A stretch of 64,000 nt of DNA from an uncultured Pseudomonadota bacterium (lineage in GTDB: Bacteria; Babelota; Babeliae; Babelales; CAIQNR01): assembly GCA_964604015.1 (NCBI GenBank), contig CAZRXF010000004.1:4861-68860 (forward strand), given 5' to 3'. Every line of letters starts with the position of its first letter. Within the stretch, counting starts at the first letter, position 1. The notes under the pieces were generated by a model that was not told the origin of the DNA, searched no databases, and saw only the letters and a program-made list of their open reading frames with translations. Positions 877-30,862 of the stretch are shown here, one piece after another. Both the position numbers and the translations under genes were made by a program.

Positions 877-1607
877 TTCCTGTTCGTGTCCTTCTTACCA
901 AAGAAACTCCTTCGTATACGCTTCCTGCAGGTACAGAATCTTGCAAGATAGATGTGTTACATTTGGTCGTTCAGGAAGACGTACAAGTGGTTATTAACGA
1001 GCCAGAGCAGTTTTTAGGAACTACGAGGAATATCAATCTTGAATTACAAGCGGGTGCTTCTGTCCAATGGCAGGGTTTTGCAAGTACCCAGGCGTTGCAT
1101 GAGACAGTGATCGTTACCATTGGTGCTCACGCTACGTTTCTAAGAACTTTTCATAGCAACCAAACCGGTTCGTTAATCGGTTCTTATACCTACGTTCTTG
1201 CCGGGCAAGAAGCTCGGGCTACTCTGATTGGTAGACTAAGTCTGACACAAAGAGCCGCACACACGTACACCATCGTGCAACTTCACGAAGCGCCTTCAAC
1301 GCATAGTTCGGTTGATGTAAAAACCGTACTTGCAGATCCAGTATCCTTCTCCTATGACGGGACCATTACTATTCAAGAAAAAGCAGCTCATTCTCAGGCG
1401 TTTCAAAGTCAAAAGAACCTTGTTCTTAGTCCTCAAGCACAGGTACGTTCAGTGCCTAATCTTGAAGTGCTGACTCATGAAGTGCAATGTGGTCACGGTT
1501 CAGCTGTATCATACGTGAACGATGACCACCTTTTTTATCTTCAAATGCGTGGAATCTTTCCTCTAAAAGCTCAGGAACTTTTGGTAGAAGGGTTTTTAAA
1601 AGACTAG
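873..1607 (+). CDS. sufD: SufD-like Fe-S assembly protein (short, 244 aa)
   Basis: Translationally coupled to sufB (ATGA at 873-876). C-terminus [39 protein letters not shown] is the SufB/SufD family signature. No sufC lies between B and D. Confidence 0.75.
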
Positions 1608-4114
1608 CTCGTAAAGCTTTTGCGTATTTTGATAAAATCAGCTTTGGCTTCTCTGGAAATGGTAGATGATCGTACAATAGCTGTTAGTACATTCTTTTCA
1701 AACTCATCACTTTGAGTATGCAGAGCTTGCATAAATACGACTCTTTCAGTTTGATGCAAGATAGATGCTGCTAGGGTTACCGCTTGGTCTGGCTGACTAG
1801 TATAGGCAGAGTAGGCAAGTGGTATAAAAAAACGGTTTATTGGGGGGTGTGAAGTAACCTTGTGTTGAAATCTGTGAGTGCTTCTTTCTAGTGCTTCAGA
1901 GTCGTCTTTTATTGCTTTAAGCATTTCATCTAAGTCTCTTATATGAGGCTTCATTGAAGGCGATTGTATTGAAAGGCGCATGCAAAAATCTTTTCTCAAA
2001 AATGTTGCGTGCGTAATGAACGTTGCCAGAAAAAGATCGACATCTTCTTCTTGTATAGTTTCTACCAAAGCTATAAGTGCTTGTGTGCCCTCATCTGGAG
2101 TAATTTTGTTTGCTCGTGCTTTTTGACATAAAGTGTAGAGCGGCTGTAGAAACTTATTGGTTTTTGCATCAGGACTCACTTTGGTTAAAACAGCAGTGAT
2201 ACGTTTTTGTATTTTACAAAGCTTATTTTTATTTGCAGGAGTGTTTGCTACTTCAATCATTCTCGTTAGACGAGTTTTAAAATTGATGAGATAGATCCAA
2301 AGAGAATCAATCAGCTCTGAGGATGGCTCGTCGTGTAATTCTCTTTCTAGTGCTTCAAAAACTGCTTGCCATACGGGTAGTTCATAACACTGAAACTGTG
2401 GAAGTTGTACCGATTGAAGGATAGGGATCATATTGGCAGGGTTGTTTGTAAAAAGATCGGTGCAGTGATTTATAATTTCTTGTTGTTGAATATCGGAGAG
2501 AGGCAAATCAAGAGTAGTGAAAGAATTGGCATGTACTATTAGTGAAATTGCTGAAAGATGACTGCCGGCTTGTTCGTTTTTGGCTGCGAGTGTACGGATA
2601 GCAGCTTTTACTGATGCTGCTTTAATAGGACTGATATTGGGTTGATGTGGTACTCCTGTAACCCTAGAAGCGTTAGAATGACTTTGTTTTTGTGGTAATA
2701 CTGTATCCACAGTTTGGTTACTTGTTGCTGTGGGTATTGGAGCTGCTGCAGTTTTAGCTTTTTGTTTTCCTTGTTCTTTTCGTATGAGTTTTTGTTCAGC
2801 AGCTGAGAGAGTATTTTCTCGTGAGCGATTGCTTATTGGTCCTTCAGGAGCAGGAGCTTCAAAAGTAAATTCTTCTTTCTTTGATGCCCTTTCTTTTTTT
2901 GAGCGGCGTGCTTGGGTGGTTGAGGTAGGTGCGTTAGATGGATCAGAAGATTGTGCAGTAATGTGTACTGGCACTTTAATAGTAGGTGCTCCCGGAGCGT
3001 AGCGCTTAGGTAGAGAAACAATAACTTTAGTAGAAGCTTTCGAGTTACTTAAATCTGGTACAAGATTTAAAGGTGATGCTGCTTGAGGGTTTTCTTTTTT
3101 TTGTGATTGTACCGGTGCTGCTGGCGGTATGCTCTGAGAAGCTGACGCAGTACGGTTCAGAATTTTAATTGGTTGGAATGGCTTGAAAGGAGAAGGAAGA
3201 GGTGGAAAAAATTCAGGAGAAAACAATGCATTGGTTGTAGCTTTGCGATCTTGTTCAGGTTCAGAAACTGGCATCAGTGCGAGAGGTTCTTGCTGTGACG
3301 ATATTTCCGCAGGTGAAGCAGTTGATTGATGTTCTGTAGGCTCTAAATGTGATGGGTGCAATTGATTTTGATTTTTTTCAGGAGCTATCACAACTGGAGC
3401 AATAGATGGATCTTGTAGTATTCTTTGTTCATGTACGGGGGCAGGTGAAGCAAGATTTTGTTCTTGTAATTTTGAGAGGTCATTTTTGATTTGTTCGATT
3501 TTTTCTTTTGGCAGATGCTTCTGTTGATTTAGAAGAAGTTGGAGGTGTTTTATGGTTCCTTTTGGTCCAAAAATTTTTAGACATTCTTCAATGATATAGT
3601 CAGTTTTATCGATTGGCATTTTAAAAGGTCGTGGGGTTACTGGATGATCGGGGGCTATTGTAGCGGGAGGTACTAGCGCAACGGAGGAGTGGCGAGTTGG
3701 AAGATAGGCAGCTGCTCCTAATGAGGGATTTTGAGGCTCTGGTGCATACCAGTAGATACGATGAAGACAGGGATTTTGGTCCTTATCGAATTGTATTTCA
3801 TAAGCAGCTTCGATGCAATGCACGTTGACAGGATCGCCGCTTGTGACATCGCAGAATACAAATCGGCCAGTTTGTCCTCTGACAAGATAAATAAAATGGT
3901 GATTGTGTTGGTCAGTTTTCCATGTAGTAAAGATTTTCTGCCATGTGATGGTTGGATTATTTGCCGGAGGCCTATAAGCATCAAAAGTAATTGAGTCTGC
4001 GTGTGATAGCGGTTCGTAAGTGAGCGGAAGAACAAGATCTCTGTGTGTCTGTGCGCCATGAGTTATGGCTGGAATACTGCCTAATGACAAAAATATAAAA
4101 AGTACCTTCTTCAT
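1604..4114 (-). CDS. P1: secreted modular low-complexity protein, member 1 of a 7-gene paralog family (function unknown)
   Basis: 836-aa ORF with signal peptide MKKVLFIFLSLGSIPAITHG|AQ. N-domain carries TITWQKIFTTWK. The middle is P/S/A/Q-rich (FFPPLPSPFKPFQP). The helical C-terminal third ends FMQAL...STISREAKADFIKIRKSF. AAGGA lies before the ATG. Its stop overlaps the sufD stop inside CTAG (1604-1607). Confidence 0.85.
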   Translation of the reverse strand: MKKVLFIFLSLGSIPAITHGAQTHRDLVLPLTYEPLSHADSITFDAYRPPANNPTITWQKIFTTWKTDQHNHHFIYLVRGQTGRFVFCDVTSGDPVNVHCIEAAYEIQFDKDQNPCLHRIYWYAPEPQNPSLGAAAYLPTRHSSVALVPPATIAPDHPVTPRPFKMPIDKTDYIIEECLKIFGPKGTIKHLQLLLNQQKHLPKEKIEQIKNDLSKLQEQNLASPAPVHEQRILQDPSIAPVVIAPEKNQNQLHPSHLEPTEHQSTASPAEISSQQEPLALMPVSEPEQDRKATTNALFSPEFFPPLPSPFKPFQPIKILNRTASASQSIPPAAPVQSQKKENPQAASPLNLVPDLSNSKASTKVIVSLPKRYAPGAPTIKVPVHITAQSSDPSNAPTSTTQARRSKKERASKKEEFTFEAPAPEGPISNRSRENTLSAAEQKLIRKEQGKQKAKTAAAPIPTATSNQTVDTVLPQKQSHSNASRVTGVPHQPNISPIKAASVKAAIRTLAAKNEQAGSHLSAISLIVHANSFTTLDLPLSDIQQQEIINHCTDLFTNNPANMIPILQSVQLPQFQCYELPVWQAVFEALERELHDEPSSELIDSLWIYLINFKTRLTRMIEVANTPANKNKLCKIQKRITAVLTKVSPDAKTNKFLQPLYTLCQKARANKITPDEGTQALIALVETIQEEDVDLFLATFITHATFLRKDFCMRLSIQSPSMKPHIRDLDEMLKAIKDDSEALERSTHRFQHKVTSHPPINRFFIPLAYSAYTSQPDQAVTLAASILHQTERVVFMQALHTQSDEFEKNVLTAIVRSSTISREAKADFIKIRKSFTS

Positions 4115-4198
4115 AAAATATCCTTGCTATTCAGTAAAGTTCTGACTTTATACGTCTGGTCAGAGGCATGAAATCAGAACCTTTGTTATTCGATAAAA

Positions 4199-7100
4199 TT
4201 AGTTTTGTTTACTGGCCTTACCTACAAGAGCAGTTACAAAATCTCTGAGTAAAGCGTTAAGTTTTGTTTTATTAGATTCTGCTAGAGCCGGATCTTTGCT
4301 TAATGTCTGTACAAGCGACGATTTTTCAGGAAGTGGAATGTCGGTTGAGGTTATAATTCTTTTCATAAGGTAAAGAAGAAGGTTGCTTGAAAAGCTACTT
4401 AAATTTTTTGCTAGTTCTGGAACGTCGGCTCTAGTAAAAGGTTGCTTAATATTAGTAAAAAAGTTCGGAGTAACCTCTTTTATCTTATGGTATGCCGCAA
4501 GATCTTTAAATAAAGCTTCTTCATCAGCCGTTAAAATCGCCAACAATTGCGCGAGAAATTCGGCTCTTCCTGCTCTTAAGAATTCTTTATGTAGAGGATC
4601 TAGTATTTTGATTTGTTCTTCGGGATTATTCATTAGCGAATTGTAGTTAGAAACTTTTCTTCTAACGTCTCTTATGAAAGGGATTTTTCCAACAGCTGTG
4701 CTATCGGGTTGAGATTTATCGAGATGAGGCTCTAGAGCTTGTCTCCACTCTCGGAGACACGGCAAAAGTTCTGGTAAAAGTTCTAATAAAAGTTTTGCAT
4801 CTTCTTCTTCTTCTTCTTCGATGGATGCTGATAGTAGTGGTTTTGAAAGTGCTTCCAAAGGAGCCGTTATGGATCTTAGGTGATCCCTTTGATTGGTGTT
4901 CGTTAGAAAAAGAATAGATGCTAGTAGGCCTTTGTTAAAATTATCAGTGTCAGGATGAACGAATAGGGCTTCAGTTAATTTTGGTGATATAAAATATGAA
5001 AGATCGTAGTTAGTTATCACTTCTAAAATTTTTTTATTACCAGTTATTTTTTCTATCAAAGCCAATTCTAAAGGGCTATTATGTCCAGGGTTGCTAAAAG
5101 GGAAATAGAATTTTTGTAACTTCATCAAGATATCATTTAATTCTTTCAAAGAGTCTGTAGGAGGGTGTTGAAATAATTCTCCTTGCTCAAACATATCGAA
5201 GATCCGTAATAGACAGTTCTCCCATACCACCTGTCTTGTAAGCCAGGAGTGGTGATTTGTTTGCTCCATCTCATGAATCTCCTGTAGAAATTTTGTATGC
5301 TCTTCGGGGCTCTTAAAAGAGTCAATAAGGGTATCCAAATCTGCAGCTGATTTTGCAGTCATAAGTGTGATGGCTTGTGCGCCTTCTGCGCGTGGTACAG
5401 GGTGTCGAAGAAGAGCGTCTGCTTTCTCCAAAATGGATTGATGACCTAACAAATATGGGGCATTTGTTATTTTTAATGCCTGTATGAAAGCGGGAGTTTC
5501 AGCTTTAATTTTCTGTGCAATAATTCTTCTTGTGGTATCGTCTAACCGAGATGGCATTTTACCCGGAGTATGAACTGCAGAAAAAAAGATGTGGAAAAAA
5601 GGTGCAAAATCTGCGTCAAAAAGTTGAATAAGTTGCTCGTTTGAAGGATCGCCTTTAAGAATAGCATCGAAAAAATTCTCTATTTTTGGAAAAGGATCAA
5701 CGTCTAAGTCTGGAGGAGATTGAACAATAGTTCGAAGCTTTTGAATGAGAGAGTCAACAGAATTTGGTTTTCCTGATGCATCGGTTACTTTTTTTCGACT
5801 CTCACTTTTTGCTTTTTCCGCCTCTGCTTGAGCGCGTCTTGCAGCGGCTTGCTGTAGTTTTCTAATCTGTGCAGCTTCTTGTTTACCACCCTCTTCCTTT
5901 CTTTGTCTGCGGGATAAAATAGGTTCACTTTGAGCAGATGCTATAAATTCAAGAGGGTCGGATTGTTGTTCTGCTTTAGCAGCTGCTGCGGCTGTTCTGG
6001 CCTCTTCTTCTTTCTTTTGTAATTGGCTTATCGGCGCATCTTTTTTAGGAGGTCGTGATGATGTGGCAGTACTTGTAGCAGGGGCAGGCGGTTGCTGCAA
6101 AGATGGTGCCGCTGCTGCTACGGGTAAAACACGAGAAGTGGTGGGCTGTTGAGGTTGTTTTTTTGAAGGTTCAGATGATGGTCTTGGTGCACGAGCGGGA
6201 GCGCTTTCTAAAGTTGACTGCTGCTTTATGTGCTGTCCCTTGGATTGTTGAGAGGTGCTTTGATGTGGTCCAGAGACAGGTACTGACGATTGTGTGTGAG
6301 GAGTAGATTGTTTAGAAGGTGTGGCAACAGCAGTTGGTAGTGGTGCCTGTGGGTTTTTCCCTGTTACAGAGTCTTCTTTTTTGGGGAATTGTAATGCTGT
6401 GGATGCACTGCTGTTTGCTTGTTGTCGTGCGACTGCTGGACGACTTGGCTGTAAAGATGCTTGATGTTTGCGATGTTGAGCTGTTGTAACAGAGGAAGAA
6501 GCAGGGGCTGCTGATGATCTCTGGGATACGGTTTGCAGGGTAGGTTGTAGGTGAGATGGTTCAGAAAAAGGCAGGGCTGGCTGGGCGGCAGCTAGAGGTG
6601 CTTGTTGGGTAGGTGCTGCCTGAGTATCGCTAGAAAGAGATCCATTTTGACTAGGTTGTAATGAAGGTGCGGGGGTAACCACAGGGTTTCTTTTTTCAAT
6701 GTGTGCAGCAGTAAGAGGAGAAGCTTGTGGCTCAGCTGCTGCTGCTAAAGAAGGCTGAGGAGCTGATGGTTGTTCTTGCAAAAGGATTGTGAGGTCACGT
6801 CTTACTTGGTCAAGAGCTTGTTGAGAAAGTCCTGAACCAATAAGTGATAACAGATGCTGAATTGCTCCTTGTTTACCTTTTTGACGTACTAAATCTGGCA
6901 GGCTTACGGACTGGATAAGGGGCATTTGTGCATTGGATGCGCCGTAGTCTACGGGGGGAAGTTGGGTGAAGCTCATAGGTGGGACTGGAGAATACAGAGG
7001 AAGTGGCTGACACATAGGGTGCCCCCACGGTTGTAAAGGATAGCTTGGATAAGGATGGGCTGGAAAAGGATGCGAGTAGAGCGGTGTCCAGAAGCGCGAT

Positions 7101-7477
7101 TCGGCGACATAAGGTGCGCCATCCCTTATTTTGATTGTATGAGTTGCTATTATATTGGAGTGATAAGGTTCTGGTTTGTCGTCGGATCCACAATAAAAAT
7201 CGAGCTGCCCCAAGCCATTATGAATAGCTTGAATGTGGTGCACCCTATGAGGCTGAGTGACCCAATTTTTCAGGAGTTCAGCCCAAGTGGTACCCGGAAA
7301 ATTTTTGGGGGAATGATACATACCGAGAGGCAATACTTTTTTGGGGTTCTGAGGATCTAAAGGTATGTTAAGTTGATATTGAGGCTGTGCGGCACTTGCG
7401 GCAGTACAAGATAGCAAAAGTACTACAAGTACCTTGAATCTAAAAAATATCGGCATAGTTTCTATCTTTTTTTTCAT
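4199..7477 (-). CDS. P2: secreted modular low-complexity protein, family member 2
   Basis: Long ORF 4199-7498. I prefer the ATG at 7477 (MKKKIETMPIFFRFKVLVVLLLSCTAASA|AQ) because GGAGA sits 5 nt upstream. N-domain has GTTWAELLKNW and ATHTIKIRDGAPYV. A Y/H/P linker, a ~400-aa P/A/S/Q-rich region, a K/E/R-rich helix and a helical C-terminal half containing an EEEEEED run follow. Confidence 0.85.
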   Translation of the reverse strand: MKKKIETMPIFFRFKVLVVLLLSCTAASAAQPQYQLNIPLDPQNPKKVLPLGMYHSPKNFPGTTWAELLKNWVTQPHRVHHIQAIHNGLGQLDFYCGSDDKPEPYHSNIIATHTIKIRDGAPYVAESRFWTPLYSHPFPAHPYPSYPLQPWGHPMCQPLPLYSPVPPMSFTQLPPVDYGASNAQMPLIQSVSLPDLVRQKGKQGAIQHLLSLIGSGLSQQALDQVRRDLTILLQEQPSAPQPSLAAAAEPQASPLTAAHIEKRNPVVTPAPSLQPSQNGSLSSDTQAAPTQQAPLAAAQPALPFSEPSHLQPTLQTVSQRSSAAPASSSVTTAQHRKHQASLQPSRPAVARQQANSSASTALQFPKKEDSVTGKNPQAPLPTAVATPSKQSTPHTQSSVPVSGPHQSTSQQSKGQHIKQQSTLESAPARAPRPSSEPSKKQPQQPTTSRVLPVAAAAPSLQQPPAPATSTATSSRPPKKDAPISQLQKKEEEARTAAAAAKAEQQSDPLEFIASAQSEPILSRRQRKEEGGKQEAAQIRKLQQAAARRAQAEAEKAKSESRKKVTDASGKPNSVDSLIQKLRTIVQSPPDLDVDPFPKIENFFDAILKGDPSNEQLIQLFDADFAPFFHIFFSAVHTPGKMPSRLDDTTRRIIAQKIKAETPAFIQALKITNAPYLLGHQSILEKADALLRHPVPRAEGAQAITLMTAKSAADLDTLIDSFKSPEEHTKFLQEIHEMEQTNHHSWLTRQVVWENCLLRIFDMFEQGELFQHPPTDSLKELNDILMKLQKFYFPFSNPGHNSPLELALIEKITGNKKILEVITNYDLSYFISPKLTEALFVHPDTDNFNKGLLASILFLTNTNQRDHLRSITAPLEALSKPLLSASIEEEEEEDAKLLLELLPELLPCLREWRQALEPHLDKSQPDSTAVGKIPFIRDVRRKVSNYNSLMNNPEEQIKILDPLHKEFLRAGRAEFLAQLLAILTADEEALFKDLAAYHKIKEVTPNFFTNIKQPFTRADVPELAKNLSSFSSNLLLYLMKRIITSTDIPLPEKSSLVQTLSKDPALAESNKTKLNALLRDFVTALVGKASKQN

Positions 7478-13717: not shown

Positions 13718-13765
13718 ATATTTTATCTTTCTTTATCAAAGTTCAATTAAAGCAATGGTATGGAT

Positions 13766-16700
13766 TTACTGTATTGTGCACATGTCAGACAACGATTCAC
13801 GCCACGTTAGTTGTCTTTTTGGTTCGTCCTGTTCTTGTGCAAGCGCAGCTTGCCAAGGTTCGCTATCTTTTGAATGTTCTCTGAGGGCTGATTTCATCAA
13901 AACAATAAAACCAAAGGGACCATCTTCATTGGTGTAAAGATTAAGAATATGAAGAAACTCCGCAATTTTTGTGGGACTTTTGATGGCTCCAATCACGTTT
14001 GTTGCAAGTGCAAGAAGCCCTTGTAGTTTGTGAGGAATCTCTGCTTTTTTATTAAAAACTCGATAGGCATAGGAAAGAAAAAGAGAGGGAGCGTTGTTGA
14101 TATTGGCAAAAATATAACGTTGCGCGGCAACAGTTTGCTGTACCGTGTTTTGTTGCCCTAACTGATGAATTCGACACGCTATTGTTTCTTCTGCAAGTAT
14201 TGTGAAGAGATTTTCTGGTGCTGTTCTGAAGTTGATTAATGATTGTACAAGCTTTCTGGCATCGTCATCAGTTGTTATTTGTTGCATGAGTTTTGAAATC
14301 CTTGACGTAACAAGGACTCGCTGCCGATTCCTTTGGTCAGGCCCCCCAGGGATTTGTGAAAAATCTGACCAGAGTTGCGCAATGGCGATAAACTGTGGGT
14401 TAAGAATATGGCTAAGTTCTGCGTGCGTTTGGCGAGCAAGCGAAGCTACCGAATCCTGACCAACCTTAGATAGTTTGACCTTATTAAAAAACTTCATACA
14501 AATTTCAAGTTGCGAAAGGGGAAGATGCAGCCTGAAATGGTTCACCGTTTCTTGTAGAGCGAGGAGCAATGCTACCTGATGAGCCAAGCAAGCATCTGCT
14601 TGTCTTGCTTGGTCAACCTGCCGTATAAAAGCGAGGGCATACTGAAAATTGTCTCCTCGAGTAGTTTGCGCAGCAGCTCCTACAGATGTTTCGTCGGTGG
14701 GATCTTGCATGAGCGATACAAGGTGCTCTTTCGCTTTTTGACATGCTGCTTGAAAATTGTGCGCTTCCAGGTCACCCTTCATTGCCTCAAGTGTCGCGGC
14801 ATGACGAGCATTAATTTCTTGTTCTTGTTCCTGGTATGCCCTCTGTGCCTGCCGTTCAGCTTCACGGCGAGCTTCTTCTTGCTGTTGTCGTGTGGGTGGT
14901 GGGGGACCAACTGGTGTTGGTGCCGGCAGCAGCGGTTGAACAAGGGCTGTAATTGTTGCGTGGTCGGCTGCTGGAAGACGTGTCTCTGCCTGGGTGAGAA
15001 GTTCTTGTAACGCTGCAGATGCTTGTGCACGTTTTTGTGAGCAGAGAAGAGCGGCAACCATTGTTTGGTAACGCATAAGCGTGTGATCAAGGTGTTCAGC
15101 ATGCTGTTCTAAGAAAGTTTGTGCTTTGGTATGAACACAGGTGCCACCGCGGCACGATCCTTGGTGTGAATTCATCTGTACCAGGTGCCATTCCAACCCT
15201 GCTGATAGCATGCCCAGGTCTGTCGCTTGTTTTAACAGTGCTTCTCGTCCCCGGTCTTCCTTTGAGGTATAGCGCAGCAGGTACCCTAAAAGGGCACGTC
15301 GATCACTGGCTGCTTGAATAACAAGGCCTTTATTTCTGCCATTCTTTAGCGCGAGTAACTTACCGACTGCCGATACGAGGATGTCAGGAGCTTGTTCGTG
15401 CTGAACTAAACTCAGAAGCTGTTGCCGATAGAGTGTGGGATTTTCTTCCTCTATAGATGCGGTAAGGCGCCATGCTTTTGAGAAATCATTTGTGTCAGTA
15501 GCATCTGTTACCTGCTGGATAAGAGCGGCATATCGTGCCGTTCGTTCAATCTCACGCTGTTGTGCTGCTTCCTTTTTTTTTCTTGCTGTTTCTTTGGCTA
15601 TTTCACGTTGTAAACGTTCTTGCTGCAGTTGTGCATCTCTTCTTTCTCTTGCTTCCTGTGCTTGTAATTCTTCAGCTTGTCGTTGCTTGAGGGCTTTTCT
15701 TTCCTCTTCTTGTTTACGGCTCAAGGCTGCTGTCTGTCTTTCTTGTTCTTCTTGCTGTTCGCGCTGACGTATAAGCGTCGCTTCGTATTCGATTTGTCTT
15801 ATATCTTCTTGTCGTTGCCTTTCTTGCGCCTGTTCCTCACGTTTACGCCCAGGAACTGCTTTTTTACTCTCATGTTGCTGTGCAGGAACAGCAGGTGTTC
15901 TTGTGGTATCGGGTTGACGTTTTTGGCGCTCCCCTTTGTGACGATGATCAACAATGACCACGTGTGCAGGCGTAACAGATGGTGAGGAATTAAGAACAGA
16001 AGAAGGTTCATTCCGAGTTGCACTGGCTGCAGGAGCTAAAGATGCAGCATCTGCTTGTATGGCGATATGAGGGGTATCGTTTTTCTTTTCTACGAAAATG
16101 GGCTTTTCTTGTGGTGCGTCAGCAGCTGGATGTTCTGCTGTGGGTGATAGTGTAGCGGGTAAGTGCGGTGATCTAAAAGTTATATCAGGTGATGGCGAGT
16201 GTAGTGGCGATGGGGATTCTGCTCGAGCACTGGACATTGGTGAAACGGTTTCATGGGATTCTGTGATGTGATGGGCTTGAGGTGACAGTTGAGAACTAGC
16301 TACTACTAAAGGTAAAGGAGGGAGGGGCAAGGAAAGAGGAGCAGCATGTATGGCAGGTGCACTTAGGGGTGGCAGTGGAAGGCGGTGTTGAGGCGCATGA
16401 GACACTAAAGAGGGGGCAGCAGAAAATAGTGGAATCTGTCGACTGGAAGATGCAAGGGAAGACATAGGAGGATAGGTAGGCGCTGCGTACTGGGGGATCT
16501 GTGGGTAGGTTGGAACTGGGTAAGGGAAGGTCCCAGCAACGAACGGGCTTCCTGGCATTTGTTGGTATGCAAGTGAGAGATGTTGGTAAACAGGGTGAAT
16601 GACTTGCTGATGTATAAAGTGACCCTGAGGCTCAGAAGTAGGAAAAACAGGAACCGGAATAAATTGTACGTTTCCATCTTCACAAACAACATTATATCGA

Positions 16701-17032: not shown

Positions 17033-17141
17033 GCGTACAAGATCCCCCTACAGAGTGTGTTGTTTAATACAGTGAGTAATAACGTGCAGAAATAGTACCG
17101 CAGAAACATTTTTTTTTGCACGAGGTTTTTGTGAAAAAAGA

Positions 17142-20100: not shown

Positions 20101-21200
20101 TTTGCGGTATCAGGAACGGTGTTCTGTGTTGCAGATGCTTCAGCAGCAATTACTGGAGCTGCAAGAACTGGTAGTAAAGCGCCCGTTGAGTGGATAGAGG
20201 GAGGAGGAGTCGGAGAAGCTACTGATGCCTCTCCTCCTGCATCTGAGGTAACCAAAATAGCGGCGACTGGGGATACAGACAATGCATGTGGGAGTTCTTG
20301 TGCAACTGGTTCAAGTAGGATTACAGAGGAACCATGTGCACCAGGTTCTGGGGATTGTTCAAGAGCTGTTACACTTGCACGAGATTCAGACAAGCGACTT
20401 TGGGCAGGACTTACTTGTTGTAGTTTTGCTAGGCGTTGCGCACACAAGGTAACAAAGCCCGGGCGTTGTTCCGGTGGAATTCCACGTATCAGATCTATAA
20501 GTGATTTCTCGATTTCATCGTCTGATGTTGTTGGAAATGATGATGCCGTAAAGAGCCTTTGCGCAGTTATACAGAAAGATTCATCTGCAGTGGCAAAAAG
20601 AAGGCGAACAATACTTAGGTGTGAAACCGGAGAGATGGTGCCAGTTGGCGATTGGAGCGGAGCAACTGCTCCTGATGGTGCTGCTGTAATTTGCGAAAAA
20701 GCTTGTTGAGGATGAGCGTAAGAGTGTGGTGGGGGAGGCACTGGGAGAGAAAAAAAAGGAAAAATAGGATTGCGGTGAGGCAATGAGGTGTCGAACATAT
20801 GAGTGACTGGGTCGGGAAAGAAGGAGCCGGTTACTTGAGGTAGTTGTCCTGGCGCAAGAAGAAGGTGGTGGTAAGAAAGATGGAAAGGTGATGCATTGGC
20901 AGGTGGTGTTGCTTCAAGGCGATAGGATACACCACTCCCGTTAGGGTTTTTCGTGACAAGAAGACCTGTACTTTGTGCTCCCTGTCCCTGTAACTGAGTA
21001 AGCGCGGCGTACAATTGCCTTCCGGCAGGCCCTCCGGGGTGAACGGAATAGAGCTGTCCATTGTGTCCTGGAAGCATAAGCATGTACACAGAGCTTGCGT
21101 TACAAAGAGGAAAAGTCACAAGGCAGACAAGAGCAAAAAGTCTCTTGAACGTGCGAGAAAAATGGCGGAATTGAGCATTCAAAGAATAAGAATAAGACAT
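17142..21200 (-). CDS. P5: secreted modular low-complexity protein, family member 5
   Basis: 1352-aa ORF whose ATG lies 1 nt after the P6 stop. N-terminal hydrophobic segment LFALVCLVTFPLCNA|SS. Contains a P/A/S/T/Q-rich region, a K/E/R helix (DKEERKERTVTFKEKREQEKRAKQERAE), VDRALLLTYLSRYAPKE, the motif CAMKNCIHRRAYCF and a helical C-terminus. Confidence 0.85.
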   Translation of the reverse strand: MSYSYSLNAQFRHFSRTFKRLFALVCLVTFPLCNASSVYMLMLPGHNGQLYSVHPGGPAGRQLYAALTQLQGQGAQSTGLLVTKNPNGSGVSYRLEATPPANASPFHLSYHHLLLAPGQLPQVTGSFFPDPVTHMFDTSLPHRNPIFPFFSLPVPPPPHSYAHPQQAFSQITAAPSGAVAPLQSPTGTISPVSHLSIVRLLFATADESFCITAQRLFTASSFPTTSDDEIEKSLIDLIRGIPPEQRPGFVTLCAQRLAKLQQVSPAQSRLSESRASVTALEQSPEPGAHGSSVILLEPVAQELPHALSVSPVAAILVTSDAGGEASVASPTPPPSIHSTGALLPVLAAPVIAAEASATQNTVPDTAKEEYNPALGAWNKKPTIATSSSRPPAPSRVTPTPPAQTSTTSSCGKNTTQQQRSSAIPTAPQIPQTQQKQRRHSTTATHHAAEPRHGTQRNATTPVPPLSPANNAASALTPPVVPKSQASAPQAESAGTPAKQRRRQASNDFFLAAAAAPNASVRKETAEPRNASAPHVAPAPTAQEGSVESAVGDTVLPSTQADQTADKEERKERTVTFKEKREQEKRAKQERAEHEQSIQEAITTALAANDIATAREHLRSLPDIQRPVHVECLLAILKALAITTDDTSDPETSVDTFEIASACQALIESPHGEIQRQLSSVDRALLLTYLSRYAPKELQENYMLDAIKLTHNFTQGLVWYIKALLKHREDHENTPCAMKNCIHRRAYCFVRSSFSANSTIILNPIFHSVGWLAGPSGCGRVREIQSEDVISAARSGLTDKQKSFEVFMAMVHKFPGTLQPVETACASAAATPISSPSLKEQAVACAEAIEASLFTRTGSIKAQEQVTAFFGSLQSPQERMLATEYLLKTHPRAASFFITALMEDPSFEPYATRIATIFQPLLSKCIADTEKSGDSESSATKSARTRFVKQLKQLHTRFENLLATSDTPVQEHAVAQLPEGYFKSLFDFFGFLPGIVFTGADAAALRSKFIADTLRKTLEEKIKTDAHIVGFLERLRQQSTHPEHTAIVQALQNYIKTLSPDKQAQWKAKMNVIHFESLNMPGGTPFKTKILPYFEKELRNFIAQHLTDPGSLQDAAGLVTKILRYPSNLGDALDIVLRNADTDEASFYWTSFHVAFAKQQEKDPRVHEAVNVVSRKVLTTIEALLQKYGNSEFFTEFAAHLEATRKIILSTLDDQQPARQAMMLPTPKKEPVSQVAEILNDPTTALALASIVAHRRAAALPTEEEREREMTAIRATLHASVLDIKTETDATAFATAFSKYGPPELKASLQMFLEEQSTLISEPIREHLFAACKPAEQVSGVFSTGGQAAAAEA

Positions 21201-21201
21201 G

Positions 21202-24200
21202 TTATCGTTTTCTAAATAATGATTGTGTTTGAGTTACAATTTCTGCACTGGAAAGATTTCGTTTTTCTTGGGGGAGTTTTACACCGCCTATAGTTTCAAG
21301 AAACTTTTTTTGTGCACGTTTGAAATCTTTTGGTTGCTTGGCAGCTAAATTTGGAGGAGCTATGTACTCAATGCACAGTGCTTTTATGCAATGGACAAGT
21401 GCTTCCCTTTGTTCGCGGGTAAGATCGGTTCCCTGTTGCTTTGATCGATCATAGATGCGGTCAAGAAGAAGTACGTATTCCTCTGGTTGAGGGTTAGCGT
21501 TCACAAGAATTTCAAGAAGATCGATTAATGAGGTACGTGGTACTTTGGAAAGAATTTTTTCAAGAACTTTAAGGAGTGCTGTTTTGTTCTCTGTAAGCTC
21601 CGGACTTGTGAAATCCATGATTGAACGTTGAAGAGGAGTGAGGACGTATTTTGTGAATGCCTCTGAGGACTGTGATCCCGTTAACCATTTTGATTGAAGC
21701 AGTTCCATACACCTTCGATACTCTTCCGGCGTAAGATCAGTATCTTTACATCTTTGGTATTCTTCTTTTGTAAGATTGGTTTCATCACGTTGGGTTTGAG
21801 GGTGAGCTTCTTGAGCGGCCGCGGCCGTATGGCGTTTTCTTTGCTGGTAAACTATGAGCGCAATACAATCAGGATTTTTTAGTTCTAATCCTTTTCTTAA
21901 TGCTCGTTCGTAAGCTGCTTGATCAGTCAAATCAGAAAGATGTTGCACTTTGGTGTAATGCAATGCGAGGCAAAAACACGCTAGCCCCTTTATTGTGTTG
22001 TTCATGTTGACTGCCGTTTCATCCTGTTCATGAACGTCAGCTTCTACAAATTCATTCAAAAGAGTGATGTTATCTTGAGATACATAGAATTCTGATTTTG
22101 TATGGAGGAGGATATAGAGAAGCATAATTTTTTCATGTAGATCATGCGCTGCTCCTGATGCTGTTTTTGCCTCAAGCTGTGCCCGCGCTTGTTTTAAATA
22201 GGCTTTTGTTAAGAGGACATCGTTTGCTGTTTCCTTTAAGACGCGGGACCTGTTCCAATGTTCACTTGCTTTTGAGATATTTTCCAAAGGGGTGAGAAGG
22301 GTGGTTGGGCAGAGGACCTCCTCATCTTTCTGAGAAGATTCGGCTTGTAGTGCCCGTAAACTGCTTAATTTGTCAGGCAAAAAATATTCGTTCTGTTCAG
22401 CTGTTCTAAGGACCCTTTCAACGAGAATAGCTGAAGGTTGGTGCGGGTCTCTGCATGGACACGGCGTGAGGTGAGCCTGGATAAAGAGGTGCATAGCAGT
22501 AAGAGAAGTGAGGGCGGTGTGTTTGTGGGTTTCGATGTAAGCGAGGGCTCTGTGGTGAGGACATTGCTCAGAAGTAGCTTCTGAGCACAGTGTAGGGGTT
22601 CGTGCAGCGTGTTCCACTTCTCTTTCCAACGAAAGATACGTGCATTCTGTGTCCCCGCATTTGCTACCAGCCTGTACATATTCAAAGTATTGTAGATCCT
22701 GCTTATCCTCAATCAAAAATCTACAGAGCGGTTGTAACTGGCTGCCATTGATTGCGCCTCGCTGCGAAGTGAAAAATGCTTTTGCTTTTTTCCGCACGAG
22801 TTTTTCTGTTTCTACATGAGCTGAGCGTTGTTCCGGCGACAAGGTAAGAAAAATCTGTACGAGGATGAAGCAATCATCAAAAGATCTTGTAAGAAGTGAA
22901 GTAAGATCAAGCTGTTCATAGCAGGTAAGTGCCGCTTGCATATCGTTATTCTTGAAGTGATTTGCGGCCCTAGTGTGCTGCTCTTCTTCTGCGTGATTTC
23001 TGACAAATGTATAGGCATTCTTGATAACCCTTGCTACCAGATTATCAGCTATGCGTTCGACTGGGGCTTTTTTCACAATACGCGGATGTTGTGGACCAAA
23101 CATAGGCCGGGCAATAAGAGGGGGAGGAGAAGATGGGAGTGATGCAGCTGTTTGGACAACAGAGACATGAAGACTTGCTTTGCGTGCTTTTTGTGTCATT
23201 TTTTTTCTTTGATTGCGGGAAAATTTAGGAGCTGCTGCTCCTGCCTTTTGTTCATTCACTTCTTCGGTAATGTCTGAAAGATTGCCTTCGATAGATTTTG
23301 AAGGAGCGGTCAAAGATGGGGAAGGAGAAGAAGGTGTGGTTACCACGACTCCTCGCTGAGGGAGCCGTACAATAATAGGTAGTGGCTTTCTGCCATAAGG
23401 CGCTTTCCCCTGCGTATGGTGTAAACCATCAGTTGTTGGTAAAACCCCTTCCTTTTGAACATGTGGGTGTGGTGGAAAAGGAGTGGAAAGTGCAGCGGCC
23501 GAGGCAGCAATTGTCGCATAAGAGCGAGCGGTTAGACCAGATGCTACCGCTCCTGGTTCTTGAATCTCATCAGCAACGGGGGGAGTGGAAGGAGGATGTG
23601 AAGCGGACGTTGCCGCCATTGGCTCTTGAGTTTCGCTAGGACCGTGAGGAGCGGAAGGAAGAGTAGGAGCGCTTGGTGCTGATTCTTCTGTAGGCGAAGG
23701 TTCAGGAGAGACCTTGCGGATGGGTGGCTGATGATCGGTAATGGCAGGAGAGGTCTGTGGGTAAGCAGGAAGAGAAGGATAGTACTGTACATAGTAGGGC
23801 ACAAGAGGAACGAGTATCACAGGGCGAAAAATCAGTACATTGGTGTAAAAGATGGGTGCCGGCGTACTATCAGGAGGAATACGCTGCAGCCATGGGTTGC
23901 TAAGATCGGATGGATACAATGCATAACGCCCGAGTTCTGCGCATTCGTGACATGGATAGGAGTTTTCCTCGTCGGTGAGAATGAAAAATGTCATTCCATC
24001 ATAGAGAAGGGTAAAGACAAAGGGTTGTTGGCGAGAATGACAATCTTCTATTACAGCAAGAAGATTGGGAACATGTTCCGTTTCGGGTCCGTGAGGTATA
24101 AGAGGAATGGTGATGGCACCTCGCGTTCCGCGCAGAATAGGAAGTAAATGCTCAAACTTCTGGCAGACCTCCGAAGATCCTAAGGACGTGTTAAAGCGAT

Positions 24201-24333
24201 CATCAAGATATGGATCAGCAAACCAAAGATTACCATGTAGTACATTGCCGCGAATATTTTGTGCGTACTGAGCGCCTTGAGTTGAGAAGGACCCCAACAG
24301 TAAGAAACTTGAAAACAATACACGATATTTCAT
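21202..24333 (-). CDS. P6: secreted modular low-complexity protein, family member 6
   Basis: ORF track 21202-24357 starts at TTG. The ATG at 24333 gives MKYRVLFSSFLLLGSFSTQG|AQ, a better signal peptide. N-domain has QQPFVFTLLYDG. Also a Y/P linker (VPYYVQYYPSLPAYP), a P/S/T-rich region, the motif CSEATSEQCPHHRALAY and a helical C-terminus. Confidence 0.85.
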   Translation of the reverse strand: MKYRVLFSSFLLLGSFSTQGAQYAQNIRGNVLHGNLWFADPYLDDRFNTSLGSSEVCQKFEHLLPILRGTRGAITIPLIPHGPETEHVPNLLAVIEDCHSRQQPFVFTLLYDGMTFFILTDEENSYPCHECAELGRYALYPSDLSNPWLQRIPPDSTPAPIFYTNVLIFRPVILVPLVPYYVQYYPSLPAYPQTSPAITDHQPPIRKVSPEPSPTEESAPSAPTLPSAPHGPSETQEPMAATSASHPPSTPPVADEIQEPGAVASGLTARSYATIAASAAALSTPFPPHPHVQKEGVLPTTDGLHHTQGKAPYGRKPLPIIVRLPQRGVVVTTPSSPSPSLTAPSKSIEGNLSDITEEVNEQKAGAAAPKFSRNQRKKMTQKARKASLHVSVVQTAASLPSSPPPLIARPMFGPQHPRIVKKAPVERIADNLVARVIKNAYTFVRNHAEEEQHTRAANHFKNNDMQAALTCYEQLDLTSLLTRSFDDCFILVQIFLTLSPEQRSAHVETEKLVRKKAKAFFTSQRGAINGSQLQPLCRFLIEDKQDLQYFEYVQAGSKCGDTECTYLSLEREVEHAARTPTLCSEATSEQCPHHRALAYIETHKHTALTSLTAMHLFIQAHLTPCPCRDPHQPSAILVERVLRTAEQNEYFLPDKLSSLRALQAESSQKDEEVLCPTTLLTPLENISKASEHWNRSRVLKETANDVLLTKAYLKQARAQLEAKTASGAAHDLHEKIMLLYILLHTKSEFYVSQDNITLLNEFVEADVHEQDETAVNMNNTIKGLACFCLALHYTKVQHLSDLTDQAAYERALRKGLELKNPDCIALIVYQQRKRHTAAAAQEAHPQTQRDETNLTKEEYQRCKDTDLTPEEYRRCMELLQSKWLTGSQSSEAFTKYVLTPLQRSIMDFTSPELTENKTALLKVLEKILSKVPRTSLIDLLEILVNANPQPEEYVLLLDRIYDRSKQQGTDLTREQREALVHCIKALCIEYIAPPNLAAKQPKDFKRAQKKFLETIGGVKLPQEKRNLSSAEIVTQTQSLFRKR

Positions 24334-24414
24334 GCTCACCATCCCACAATTTGCCAAAAAAGTGGGGTTAAGCTTACTGATTTATTGTTGTTCTGTAACT
24401 ATTCTTTGCGGTTT

Positions 24415-24459
24415 AAAAATAAAAGAGCCCTCATGAAAATTGAGAGCTCTTTTATTTTT
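24415..24459 (-). terminator. Strong hairpin between P7 and P6, candidate intrinsic (bidirectional) terminator
   Basis: AAAAATAAAAGAGC (24415-24428) pairs perfectly with GCTCTTTTATTTTT (24446-24459). The stem carries A- and T-runs on both sides, and the site lies 33 nt past the P7 stop. Confidence 0.6.
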
Positions 24460-24491
24460 AAACTGCAGACATGAGACGTTGGATACGCTAC

Positions 24492-26777
24492 TTACACTGC
24501 TGCTGCGGCGCCGTGATGATGAACACGTTGGTCAGCCGGAATAATGTCTGTAGGAATAACTGCATTGATTTGTGCTAGTTCTTCATCATCATAGACAGGA
24601 GTTTGCGTACAGCGTTTGTACACTTTTCTTATTCCTTCAGCTATGGTGTCTTTGCCTTTTGTGTAGCCAGCTTTGAGAATGTTACATTTTTCTTGGTAAG
24701 CAGTTACAAGGCTTCTGAGGTAAAGAACAGCAATTTCTACGCATTCTTCCCCGTCTGCTTGAGCAGCTTTAGCAAATTCTTTGGCTTCCTCATGAATGCA
24801 GTGGCGTTTTACTGTGCAGCGCTCCTGTGATGCAGCTCGGTCAAGTAATCTTAGATAGTTAATAGCCTGTGCTTTGGTATGTTGTTTCTCCACGTCACAA
24901 CTAAGACATTGATCAAGAAATTCTTGTTTTTTATCGACATCTTTTTCGTGCATAGAGAGCGCAAAATAAAGACAGGTTCGATACCACTTGTCAATTTTTT
25001 TGTCATGAGAAAATTGGATTGCTTTCGGGATAAAGGCACTGATTTCTTCCGCGGTCAACATATAACGTGCGTTCACGTAAAGATCACCAACAAAAACCGT
25101 GTGTCGCACTTCAAGATGTGCAATGTTAGGAAGACGTTCTTTGGCTTCTTTGAGTCTTCCGGCATTCAACAGCGCCTCGATTTCTTCGAGTGAAATGGTA
25201 TCGCTTATTGGTCGTGTAGGCATCTCCTCTTCGTCGGAATCGAGCTCAGCGGCGGCTGCTATTTGCAATGCAGCAAGAGCGCTGGCGGTACTCCGTTGTT
25301 GCGGACGAGGGTGTTTTTCTTCTGCTTTTTTGTGCGCGATGGTAGCAGCAGCGGCAGCTATGCTTTGTTCTTGTGCGCGTTGAACATCGCGTTTCATTGC
25401 TTGTGCATGTTGTGTAAGTAAGGCTTCAAAATCATCGCCTTTTGCAGCTTTGCTGCGATCCTGTTTTTTGGCTCCGGAAGCAGAAGCTTTTTGAGCAGCA
25501 GCTCTATCTCTTTCTGCTTGCTCTTTTCGTTTTTGTTTTTCCGCTTCTTCTTTTTCTTTTTTCTCAGTATCGGCTTGAGCCTTTTTTGCAGTAGCAGCAT
25601 CTCGCTTTTGCTTAGCTTGTTCTTCTTGCTTTTGTTTAGCTTCACGTTCAGCCCGTTCTTGCGCCTCTTTACGTGCTTTTACGTTAGATTGTTCTTGCGC
25701 TTCCTTTGCAGCTTGTTCTTGGCGCCTTTTTTCTTTTTTAGCCTGTTTTTTTGCTTCTCGTTTAGCTTGTTCTTCGGCAGATACTTCTTCTGTCTCTTCC
25801 TGTTCTTGTAAGGAAGTTTCCGCTGTTCCAGGAACGGATGAGGAAGCTATTGTTGTGGTCTCAGAAGTGGCAGCTGCAGCTGCTTGCGTAAGGTTGCCCG
25901 AAGCAGTATCTGCTTGGTCTTGCTGAAGTCTAAGAGTGGTAGGAAGAGGCGGTTCTTCCTGTTGGTGGCCAGAAAGTTCAACATGATGCAATGTGGCTGT
26001 GGATGGTGTGGATTCTTCTTGCAAAGTTGGAGCCGCTGAGATGACTGATGATTGTTGTTCCTCAAGAGTCAGAGATGCAAGAACTGTTTGCAGTTCGCGC
26101 GTAACAGGGCTTGTAGGTGACGTTGCAGAGGAAGCACGAGAGGTTTGACTTGAAGATCTGCCTGGGGTGTTACTGGTTTGAGCTGGTGTTGCTCGGCGTC
26201 TTTGGTGTCTTGTGGGTGGTGCTACGGGTACGGGTACGGCGAAAGGCACTGGACGATCGACAGGGACAGCAAAAGGTACTCGATGAATAACGGGTACTGG
26301 ATAGGGATGATGAACGACAACAGTTTGTGTAGGAGGGTTCGTCATTTGTTGTTTAAGTGATTCGACTTCTGCTGGAGTAAAATGAAATGCTTTGCCGTCA
26401 GCGTGAACTCGATAAGCAGCAACTATGTCGTAACGAACAGAAGGATTTTTGAAGGGGATGAGGTTTATGTCTGTTCTTAGCAATGCATTGCCACGCTCGG
26501 AGTGCCCATCGTCTGTTTTACAGAGGAAAAAACAGAAGGGTTGATTGCTTGAGTGGGCGGCATCTAAATAGCCGAGTAAAGTTAAGCGTCCCGTTTCTTC
26601 AGCAAGAGGTTTTTGTCTCAGATTGAGAGTCACAGGAGCTTGAGGAGTAGCGATAGCAAGTGAGGACCCATCATCACTCAAAGTGTACGTCCCTATTGAA
26701 CCAAGTCCCTGAGCGGCATAGGCCATTGGGCACACTAAGCTCAGAATAAAGAAATTTAAGAACAGACTTCGCTTCAT
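24492..26777 (-). CDS. P7: secreted modular protein, family member 7 (shortest, with the longest ER/K-type charged helix)
   Basis: ORF track 24492-26792. The ATG at 26777 (MKRSLFLNFFILSLVCPMAYA|AQ) has GGAGG 8 nt upstream. N-domain has SNQPFCFFLCKTDDG. Also a V/P/F linker (RVPFAVPVDRPVPFAVPVPV), an S/T/Q-rich region, ~120 aa of E/K/A/Q/R helix and the motif CTVKRHCIHEEAKEF. Confidence 0.85.
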   Translation of the reverse strand: MKRSLFLNFFILSLVCPMAYAAQGLGSIGTYTLSDDGSSLAIATPQAPVTLNLRQKPLAEETGRLTLLGYLDAAHSSNQPFCFFLCKTDDGHSERGNALLRTDINLIPFKNPSVRYDIVAAYRVHADGKAFHFTPAEVESLKQQMTNPPTQTVVVHHPYPVPVIHRVPFAVPVDRPVPFAVPVPVAPPTRHQRRRATPAQTSNTPGRSSSQTSRASSATSPTSPVTRELQTVLASLTLEEQQSSVISAAPTLQEESTPSTATLHHVELSGHQQEEPPLPTTLRLQQDQADTASGNLTQAAAAATSETTTIASSSVPGTAETSLQEQEETEEVSAEEQAKREAKKQAKKEKRRQEQAAKEAQEQSNVKARKEAQERAEREAKQKQEEQAKQKRDAATAKKAQADTEKKEKEEAEKQKRKEQAERDRAAAQKASASGAKKQDRSKAAKGDDFEALLTQHAQAMKRDVQRAQEQSIAAAAATIAHKKAEEKHPRPQQRSTASALAALQIAAAAELDSDEEEMPTRPISDTISLEEIEALLNAGRLKEAKERLPNIAHLEVRHTVFVGDLYVNARYMLTAEEISAFIPKAIQFSHDKKIDKWYRTCLYFALSMHEKDVDKKQEFLDQCLSCDVEKQHTKAQAINYLRLLDRAASQERCTVKRHCIHEEAKEFAKAAQADGEECVEIAVLYLRSLVTAYQEKCNILKAGYTKGKDTIAEGIRKVYKRCTQTPVYDDEELAQINAVIPTDIIPADQRVHHHGAAAAV

Positions 26778-26813
26778 TTTTTCTACCTCCATAATTTTAA
26801 TACTCTAATAGAA

Positions 26814-26841: not shown

Positions 26842-26898
26842 AAGGGAGGAAGATTAAGCTTATTTTTTGGGAAATAAGGCAAAGATGAGCATACCTTT

Positions 26899-30861: not shown

Positions 30862-30862
30862 A

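Follow-up and report, generated by a model that had tools for sequence, protein, structure and literature searches.

Seven large, rapidly diverging and putatively exported proteins encoded by a syntenic array between sufD and sufS of an uncultured bacterium

We analysed a 64,000-nucleotide (nt) stretch of contig CAZRXF010000004.1 from an uncultured bacterium (referred to below as the window), in which seven consecutive open reading frames (ORFs) on the minus strand, named P1 to P7, form a 25-kb array. As the original prediction for this DNA had described, the seven ORFs are co-directional, encode proteins of 766-1987 amino acids (aa) and make up about 39% of the window. The array proved to be a network of divergent paralogues, five of which are retained in the same order and at the same site in a sister species, with sequences that have diverged further than those of the neighbouring genes and that match no known family in the databases searched. 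Regarding their function, we give an even chance to the reading that P1-P7 are Sec-exported, extended binding scaffolds, which would act at or beyond the cell surface toward a host or another partner and would diversify quickly.

Shared domains and paralogy of the seven proteins

The strongest feature shared within the array was a Cys-Cys-His-Cys (CCHC) motif, located in a helical domain of about 200 aa that is common to P3-P7. Its signature, C-x3-8-C-x-H-x2-[AS]-x2-[FY], lies right after the charged helix of these proteins, and a third invariant cysteine, which became visible only once the orthologues of the sister species had been added, follows 31-37 residues past the second one. On the minus strand, the signature was located at 11183-11302 in P3 (C806, C812, H814, C845), 15041-15154 in P4 (C627, C632, H634, C664), 18870-18998 in P5 (C735, C740, H742, C777), 22459-22587 in P6 (C591, C599, H601, C633) and 24684-24818 in P7 (C659, C665, H667, C703). 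In P3-P7 it takes the form C-x4-7-C-x-H-x2-A-x2-[FY]. Derived from the window proteins, the motif recurred in 5/5 orthologues, and all three cysteines and the histidine were invariant in the ten domains. Shuffling yielded 0.003-0.008 matches per protein set, with an expectation of 0.003 for the seven window proteins, where five were seen. Neither domain nor motif was present in P1 and P2. A helix opening with ND-x3-A and a match between P4 and P5 ('DRRALL..YL.RY') had already been noted as part of a module order common to all seven proteins; both are real, the helix opening the conserved domain and the match falling within it, and it is their extension to P1 and P2 that did not stand.

Comparison of profiles built from orthologue pairs (hhalign) linked the CCHC domains of P4 and P5 at 3e-9, P3 and P5 at 1.5e-5, P3 and P4 at 7e-5 and P5 and P7 at 4e-4; the other pairs gave P of 4e-3 to 4e-2, always in the identical register. 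An AlphaFold2 (AF2) model of the P3 domain, based on a five-sequence alignment, consists of twelve helices arranged in hairpins, with a mean confidence (predicted local distance difference test, pLDDT) of 68.6 and values of 80-92 over the first ~110 residues. Foldseek found no match for this model in the PDB at E <= 0.001; the nearest folds were weakly similar to tetratricopeptide repeats (TPR), with template modelling scores of 0.46 (3gw4) and 0.44 (TPR of LGN). In Pfam, the seven proteins showed no TPR or Sel1 match at E <= 1, and the CCHC domains gave a single TPR_8 match at E <= 10 (0.042, in 1/10 domains). The earlier statement that the array lacks TPR was accordingly correct for sequence matches and needs qualification for the modelled fold, with its helical hairpins and weak, generic TPR-like neighbours. 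Together, the invariant residues probably form either a metal site or a disulfide accompanied by a free ligand; the former would fit better than disulfides alone, because the number of invariant cysteines is odd and a histidine goes with them. No Pfam match to the ten copies reached significance, and the CCHC domain appears to be new.

A second domain, of about 110 aa, follows the signal peptide of P1-P4 (type A) and was detected by BLASTP with low-complexity masking and by leave-one-out hidden Markov models (HMMs). It displays the pattern P..P....W..[IL]F..W followed by strands, and the leave-one-out HMMs recovered it at E values of 1e-10 to 4e-4, each scoring above 1000/1000 shuffles; the N-domain of P2 matched those of P3 (2e-9) and of the P3 orthologue in the sister species, R3 (8e-10). 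Profile-profile comparison revealed no significant link between the N-domain of P1-P4 and the N-terminal regions of P5, P6 and P7, and a weak resemblance was seen between the N-domains of P6 and P7 (hhalign P 0.0025). For the type-A domain, AF2 produced a weak model of one helix and four strands (pLDDT 53), and Foldseek against the PDB gave no meaningful match with a model of this poor quality. Further relationships were seen outside these two domains. The helix G-x2-G-[AT]-[IV]-x-[HY]-L, which had been attributed to every member, is a genuine helical module of ~50 aa (LRTLI module), found only in P1, P2, P3 and the P3 orthologue. In the C-terminal parts, P1 (aa 553-819) resembles P3 (aa 1542-1843; BLASTP 4e-8 to 7e-8), and P5 (aa 1015-1196) resembles R3 (aa 1439-1613; 4e-9).

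Judged from these sequence comparisons, the seven proteins are a mosaic network, in which P1-P4 share one domain, P3-P7 share another, and P3 and P4 carry both. The masked all-against-all and HMM-HMM comparison that had been proposed as a check of the family did return significant similarity, in the form of this network and not between all pairs, and the idea of one module order in all seven had to be given up, as N-domain homology is confined to P1-P4 and the CCHC domain to P3-P7.

Gene by gene, the network takes the following shape, each protein beginning with a predicted signal peptide. P1 (1604-4114, 836 aa) contains a type-A N-domain (aa 21-135), the LRTLI module (aa 173-224), low-complexity sequence (aa ~136-521) and a helical C-terminal part, and P2 (4199-7498, 1099 aa as a mechanical ORF) has the same components (N-domain aa 37-150, LRTLI module aa 198-247, low-complexity sequence ~aa 151-600, helical C-terminal part); both are devoid of the CCHC domain. 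P3 (7754-13717, 1987 aa) combines a type-A N-domain (aa 23-150), a His/Tyr/Pro linker, the LRTLI module (aa 219-264), ~490 aa of low-complexity sequence, a short ER/K helix (aa 643-671), the CCHC domain (aa 681-906) and a helical C-terminal region of ~1080 aa. P4 (13766-17032, 1088 aa) has a type-A N-domain (aa 23-135), a Pro-rich region, a long ER/K helix (aa 395-499), the CCHC domain (aa 502-727) and a helical C-terminal part. In P5 (17142-21200, 1352 aa), an N-terminal region of its own is followed by a low-complexity region, an ER/K helix (aa 557-604), the CCHC domain (aa 610-835) and a helical C-terminal part. P6 (21202-24357, a mechanical ORF of 1051 aa with a TTG start) shows a type-B N-domain ('QQPFxF'), a Pro-rich region, the CCHC domain (aa 466-691) and a helical C-terminal part, its stop lying 1 nt from the start of P5. 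Finally, P7 (24492-26792, 766 aa as a mechanical ORF) consists of a type-B N-domain, a Pro/Val-rich linker, a low-complexity region, an ER/K helix of 115 aa (aa 328-442) and the CCHC domain, which forms its C-terminus (aa 534-766). For P2, P6 and P7, translation probably begins a few codons downstream of the mechanical start: database gene calls give 1092 aa for P2 (start 7477) and 761 aa for P7 (start 26777), GGAGG lies upstream of this second ATG of P7, and the true start of P6 is probably at 24342 or 24333.

From P1 to P7, the genes are separated by 84, 255, 48, 109, 1 and 134 nt. No nucleotide similarity was found among the seven genes, as had been reported before, and no tandem repeats within them. 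A mobile or foreign origin was considered and rejected: the guanine-cytosine (GC) content of the array is about that of the rest of the window, GC at third codon positions is only slightly lower (0.27-0.36 vs 0.40), and no integrase, repeats or tRNA were found flanking the array.

Whole-protein searches with P1-P7 gave no significant match in Pfam or NCBIfam, and the PDB sequences gave none with single sequences or with profiles. Within these three resources, no catalytic, autotransporter or named repeat family was detectable, in agreement with the original prediction, and structural modelling of the CCHC domain and the N-domain likewise led to no characterised family. Full-length P3, its C-terminal 1298 aa and a five-sequence alignment of the Cys domain retrieved only themselves among 5.8 billion clustered proteins in a word-indexed search, and the C-terminal part of P3 had no match among genome contigs.

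Synteny and rate of change in a sister species

When 1.84 billion representatives were scanned exhaustively with the N-domain HMM, the four window proteins were retrieved together with one true outside relative, P0022 (E 9e-11), a protein of 1862 aa; eight further hits were dismissed as artefacts, in which ~0-bit matches had been summed over 5-24 tandem repeats. With all the modules of P3, the Cys motif among them, P0022 is a full P3-like protein and corresponds to R3. It is encoded on a contig of 661,847 bp (ENA ERZ27247967), and also on JGI Ga0214923_10000002 and on a contig of 1,051,688 bp. An alignment of the P7/R7 domain searched against JGI metagenome contigs again identified only this sister species. 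On the searches made, the family is restricted to this clade, the organism of the window and one sister species, as a lineage-specific family had been expected to be, and is matched by none of the described families or folds that were searched.

In the sister species, five co-directional genes encoding 712, 1016, 1469, 1078 and 1862 aa lie between sufS and sufD and are the positional orthologues of P7, P6, P5, P4 and P3 (R7, R6, R5, R4 and R3). The flanks are colinear, with NurA, nifU, a secreted ORFan, a HAD hydrolase, an M48 peptidase and sufS on one side and sufD and sufB on the other. We judged the array to be old and retained because P3-P7 have orthologues in unchanged order and position in the sister species, which agrees with the earlier view of old duplications that have been kept. 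No counterparts of P1 and P2 were found at the sister locus; on the simplest reading, they would be P3-like copies added in the lineage of the window, and alternatively they may have been lost in the sister species. In a more distant relative (GyrB identity 59%), two unrelated small secreted ORFs and no array stand beside sufD (L003, 5563-7034). The product of one of these small ORFs contains a J-domain-like 'HPD' motif ('YVHPDKNPDD') as well as a hydrophobic segment at its C-terminus.

In both species, the array splits the suf operon for Fe-S assembly by 25 kb of opposite-strand sequence, a feature that, like the CCHC motif, had escaped the original prediction. In the window, the 3' part of sufB (13-876, plus strand) and sufD (873-1607, plus strand) converge with the array, the end of sufD overlapping the stop of P1, and are parted by it from the cysteine desulfurase gene sufS (26965-28164, plus strand), which is divergent from P7; in strain L083 of the sister species, the split runs between 3213-4406 and 23326-24410. 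Past sufS follow nifU and a NurA-domain gene. The position of the array with nifU nearby, the invariant Cys-Cys-His-Cys signature and a partly conserved divergent intergenic region between P7 and sufS could speak for metal or Fe-S proteins tied to the suf locus, which would use the CCHC site to bind iron, zinc or an Fe-S cluster in metal handling. We consider such a link highly improbable: the array is encoded on the strand opposite to suf, P1 and P2 lack the site, there is a single site per 760-2000 aa of otherwise unrelated sequence, and it is unrelated ORFs that adjoin sufD in the more distant relative. Furthermore, cofactor-loaded exported proteins normally use the twin-arginine translocation (Tat) pathway, and the signals of the array are of the Sec type and not of the twin-arginine type.

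The array proteins have changed far more than their surroundings. Global identities between the two species were 92% for GyrB and for SufB (80% at the nucleotide level for the latter), 78% for NifU, 72% for SufS, 69% for the M48 peptidase, 55% for the neighbouring secreted ORFan, 48% for SufD and 44% for the HAD hydrolase, compared to 36% for P7/R7, 30% for P6/R6, 29% for P4/R4, 27% for P3/R3 and 24.5% for P5/R5. Orthologues of the array have almost no identical five-residue runs. Local similarity is nonetheless evident: R6 aligns with P6 at 27% identity over 660 aa (E 6e-53), and R7 and P7 share 39% identity within the CCHC domain and keep the C-terminal 'INAxIPxDxIPADQR'. When the sister-species strains L083 and L084 were compared, the ratio of non-synonymous to synonymous rates (dN/dS, Nei-Gojobori) was 0.72-1.30 per array gene, with 34 synonymous and 107 non-synonymous differences pooled over 4,297 codons, and replacements fall also in the helical C-terminal part. 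A 19-aa indel was found in the ER/K helix of R4 (L083 14544-17780 vs L084 8210-11503), and the length of the spacer therefore varies within the species.

Against this background of change, the reading frames, the gene order, the signal peptides, the three cysteines and one histidine and the P7 promoter region have been held fixed. A rival reading is that the array consists of largely unconstrained or decaying 'junk' ORFs that persist by inertia in a reduced genome with low recombination and whose products do little or nothing. Such a fate would account for a dN/dS of about 1 between close strains, for the extreme divergence of orthologues and for the large share of low-complexity sequence. Genomes under reductive pressure, however, tend to delete useless DNA, and the array amounts to 25 kb in a genome presumed to be under such pressure; no frame is broken along its 766-1987 codons in any of three independent genomes or strains, gene order, signal peptides and promoter, leader and ribosome-binding site are conserved, and the Cys/His residues persist in 10/10 domains. 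We hold decay to be very unlikely. The combination of fixed frames, order, signals, promoter and Cys-His site amid change would rather mark genes of central importance for the relations of this lineage with its environment, which is most probably a eukaryotic host.

Export signals, possible function and comparable systems

All seven proteins and 5/5 sister orthologues start with the n/h/c pattern of a signal peptide, as recognised by our own heuristic (not SignalP). In all seven window proteins, a basic n-region (weak in P4) precedes a hydrophobic core of at least 10 residues with a mean Kyte-Doolittle value of 2.3-3.1, small residues occupy -3/-1, and five of the seven display the recurrent cleavage context [GA]|A[QE] that had been noticed in the first place. 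Measured against the Sec criterion (positive n-region, hydrophobic core of 7-15 residues, small residues at -3/-1), the heuristic predicts Sec-dependent export of all seven. No twin-arginine (RR) motif occurs in any N-terminus, and a lipobox ([LVI][ASTVI][GAS]C) fits R7 ('LVAC') and marginally P2 ('LLSC') and none of the remaining proteins. Besides the signal segment, a strongly hydrophobic 19-residue window is found only in P3 and P6. The window contains no genes for type III or type IV secretion systems, and the Sec signals argue against either route. With respect to autotransport, there was no Pfam autotransporter or beta-barrel match, the CCHC domain is modelled as all-helical, and no aromatic residue stands at any of the C-termini. 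The C-terminal ~25 residues of P7 and R7 ('ELAxINAxIPxDxIPADQR'; window 24495-24560, L083 6650-6718) are among the best-conserved stretches and have no counterpart in the other array members; this tail could be a sorting or interaction motif.

Between the N-terminal and the helical parts, the predicted Pro/Ser/Thr/Ala/Gln-rich low-complexity segments are indeed present, accounting for roughly 24-54% of each protein, a share at which the description 'mostly disordered' is overstated. The charged helix, proposed for all seven proteins, is clear in P3, P4, P5 and P7, where strict ER/K-type helices (no Pro or Gly, >=75% E/K/R/Q/A/D) were found. An ER/K composition is typical of stable single helices that serve as rigid spacers. 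The long Glu/Lys/Arg/Gln/Ala runs in P4 (aa 395-499) and P7 (aa 328-442) are similar to such helices, an assignment made by composition only, and could instead be coiled coils. In the Pro-rich parts, PxxP and [FWYL]PxφP are raised relative to shuffles (z about 5), because the Pro residues cluster locally.

The original interpretation as a surface, matrix or host-interaction scaffold is plausible, and we favour it as well, judging from the signal peptides, the architecture, the speed of divergence and the organism's probable lifestyle. In such a scaffold, the N-terminal signal peptide would take each protein across the inner membrane, and the small N-terminal alpha+beta domain, of type A in P1-P4 and of a different type in P5-P7, would stay proximal. 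An extended spacer would follow, made up of the His/Tyr/Pro linker, a low-complexity stretch of 150-500 aa and, in P3, P4, P5 and P7, the ER/K helix, and the distal helical part would represent the binding end, which in P3-P7 would start with a helical-hairpin domain held by the Cys-Cys-His-Cys site. The family would grow by tandem duplication, P1 and P2 being P3-like copies, and its divergence, faster than that of the rest of the genome, would come from facing a changing partner.

A more specific version, which we put forward tentatively, regards P1-P7 as a so far unrecognised 'tethered-hook' class of giant Sec-exported proteins made of a small proximal domain, a spacer of disordered and single-helix segments spanning hundreds of residues and a new metal-stabilised (Cys2-His-Cys) helical-repeat binding domain. 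A Babeliales-like parasite might deploy them on its surface or into its host in the course of an arms race, with five ancient paralogues for distinct targets and P1 and P2 newly spawned.

The assumed lifestyle depends on the placement of the organism. The closest GyrB sequences come from two metagenome-assembled genomes, one carrying the label Candidatus Babeliales (67%) and the other that of an uncultured Pseudomonadota (59%), and both share the local gene order of the window; GyrB of all other genomes reaches at most 54% over the full length, a few attaining 56-61% on the best segment only. Babeliales belong to Candidatus Babelota (Dependentiae, TM6). Chromulinavorax destructans, a cultured parasite of the Babeliales, has signal peptides on 44% of its coding sequences, and ORFans presumed to target the host are over-represented among its secreted proteins (PMC6561590). 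The window exhibits the same pattern as the small genomes of Dependentiae/Babeliales parasites with their many signal-peptide proteins and ORFan-rich secreted sets: about a dozen signal-peptide ORFans besides the array suggest an unusually large exported ORFan complement. On these grounds, a Babeliales placement and a host-dependent lifestyle are plausible. In contrast to the described Babeliales effectors, which are mainly ankyrin-repeat proteins, proteases and nucleases, the array has no ankyrin or enzyme domain, and it was found in two sister species only. The source genome is at least about 1 Mb in size; if it is little above 1 Mb, as the 1.05-Mb contig of the sister species would suggest, the 25-kb array makes up roughly 2-2.5% of it.

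Several observations weigh against a host-directed binding role. A Sec signal alone brings a protein only as far as the periplasm, no C-terminal sorting signal is common to the seven proteins, and the 64-kb window contains no secretion-system gene. SH3 class I/II and PPxY motifs, canonical linear motifs for binding eukaryotic proteins, are not enriched in the Pro-rich segments. The databases searched returned no functional or structural homologue, which leaves binding as a reading of the architecture, and the AF2 models were built on alignments of only 4-5 sequences. A dN/dS of about 1 between close strains is expected also under relaxed constraint, the strain comparison covers array genes only, and according to Rocha and co-workers (2006), dN/dS is reportedly time-dependent and inflated at short divergence. 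Lastly, the lifestyle is deduced from a distant labelled relative and the 1.05-Mb contig of the sister species, and the second-closest relative is labelled Pseudomonadota.

The first of these points would also fit structural tethers of the cell envelope, of the type of TolA, TonB or long lipoprotein spacers, which would reside in the periplasm or outer membrane, span or organise the envelope by means of their Pro-rich and ER/K segments and have no direct role toward a host. The array proteins share with TolA and TonB a hydrophobic N-terminal segment, a long spacer that is Pro-rich or a charged, Lys/Glu/Ala-rich helix, and a C-terminal globular interaction domain, and a diderm envelope is indicated because the window encodes a TonB-C-like protein and an S41 protease. 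The only named hit of the whole array also points in this direction, being a weak TolA match on the charged helix of P4 (aa 370-504; E 0.0016). At 17.8 bits vs a cutoff of 59.45, in a compositionally biased helix and with no C-terminal domain III, we rejected a TolA identity for P4. In contrast to TolA and TonB, the array signals look cleavable (AxA-type sites) and not anchor-like, the proteins contain no TolA-III or TonB-C domain, and the family is fast-evolving and not found outside one narrow clade; seven copies and orthologue identities of 24-36%, vs 44-92% for the neighbours, would be unusual for housekeeping parts of the envelope. An envelope tether is, in our estimate, unlikely.

For exported binding scaffolds, the closest analogy that we can name would be the Sel1-like (SLR) and cysteine-rich (Hcp) family of Helicobacter, whose rapid and partly adaptive evolution has been attributed to host interaction (PMC1941758). 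Common to both are a Sec signal (predicted in the array), conserved cysteines, which in the array would tie helices as they do in Hcp, organisation as a paralogous family and fast evolution; stacks of antiparallel helix pairs, as in Hcp, are suggested for the array by the low-confidence AF2 model, and by eye the segment preceding the Cys motif of the array ('A.D.GD...L.W/Y') looks SLR-like. The array differs in having no SLR/TPR profile match and no PDB sequence match, in its one CCHC cluster per protein in P3-P7, whereas Hcp has a disulfide Cys pair in every repeat, and in proteins that are 3-8 times larger than Hcp and carry long spacers of low-complexity and ER/K type as well as additional domains at both termini. 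Neither its sequence nor its Cys pattern places the array in the Hcp/SLR family.

Intracellular bacteria with reduced genomes also possess large exported surface proteins in tandem families, namely the chlamydial Pmp and the rickettsial Sca autotransporters. Like these, the array comprises clustered large Sec-exported paralogues (as predicted here) that occupy a sizeable share of a small genome and are divergent between species; unlike them, it has no autotransporter beta-barrel or passenger repeat signature, and its C-terminal parts are all-helical. The general kind of system, that is, tandem, large, fast-evolving exported proteins in a small-genome and probably host-dependent bacterium, is thus familiar; no mechanism is established by our analysis, no new one is revealed and no standing question is resolved. 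What the array would offer are testable candidate host-interaction proteins and, as it appears, one new conserved domain, in a phylum with almost no understood effector, as well as a case in which to study how giant disordered exported proteins may be born by tandem duplication, followed by divergence beyond recognition.

Transcription signals and neighbouring ORFans

Upstream of P7, in the intergenic region shared divergently with sufS, a sigma-70-like promoter was identified at 26814-26841 (minus strand; TTGACT, 16 nt, TAAAAT). The sister species keeps this arrangement, with TTGAC, a spacer of 16-17 nt, TATAAAAT, a leader and GGAG. After the stop of P7, a hairpin at 24411-24463 (minus strand), flanked by A and U runs, has a predicted stability of -34 kcal/mol (z = -10.1; 0/200 shuffles as stable). 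It is a probable intrinsic terminator, which would make P7 a transcription unit of its own.

Conserved blocks between the window and the sister species were also present in the P7-P6 and P5-P4 gaps. In the latter, the block TTTCTGCGGTAC (window 17085-17102; L083 about 14470-14490) overlaps a small hairpin; it may act as an internal promoter or else mark a processing site. Further conserved blocks, ATTCCAGTGTAAC, GCAATTTT and AAAATAAGCT, lie in that half of the sufS/P7 intergenic region which is nearer to sufS (window 26845-26964; L083 4407-4500), and a regulator of sufS alone, or of sufS and P7 together, may bind there.

Beyond sufS, the NurA-domain nuclease gene (30737-31987, plus strand; Pfam E 2e-24) has no adjacent HerA-like ATPase, and the next ORF is a secreted ORFan; the same arrangement was found in the sister species (L083 1-520). 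The surrounding region (29710-36919) contains small ORFans of 233, 402, 249, 172, 210 and 187 aa, most of them signal-peptide-like and with no Pfam match, and further signal-peptide ORFans are located at 41792-42349, 53394-54912 and 60022-62235. A second tandem family was observed at 43609-46194 (minus strand), where adjacent ORFans of 322, 196 and 335 aa with signal peptides and no Pfam match share an 'EKMRL.YL..HP' region at 24-34% identity. The ORF at 60022-62235 (plus strand) encodes a signal-peptide protein of 737 aa with a sub-threshold match to lysophospholipase (PLA2_B, E 0.0014), which may be an exported lipase.

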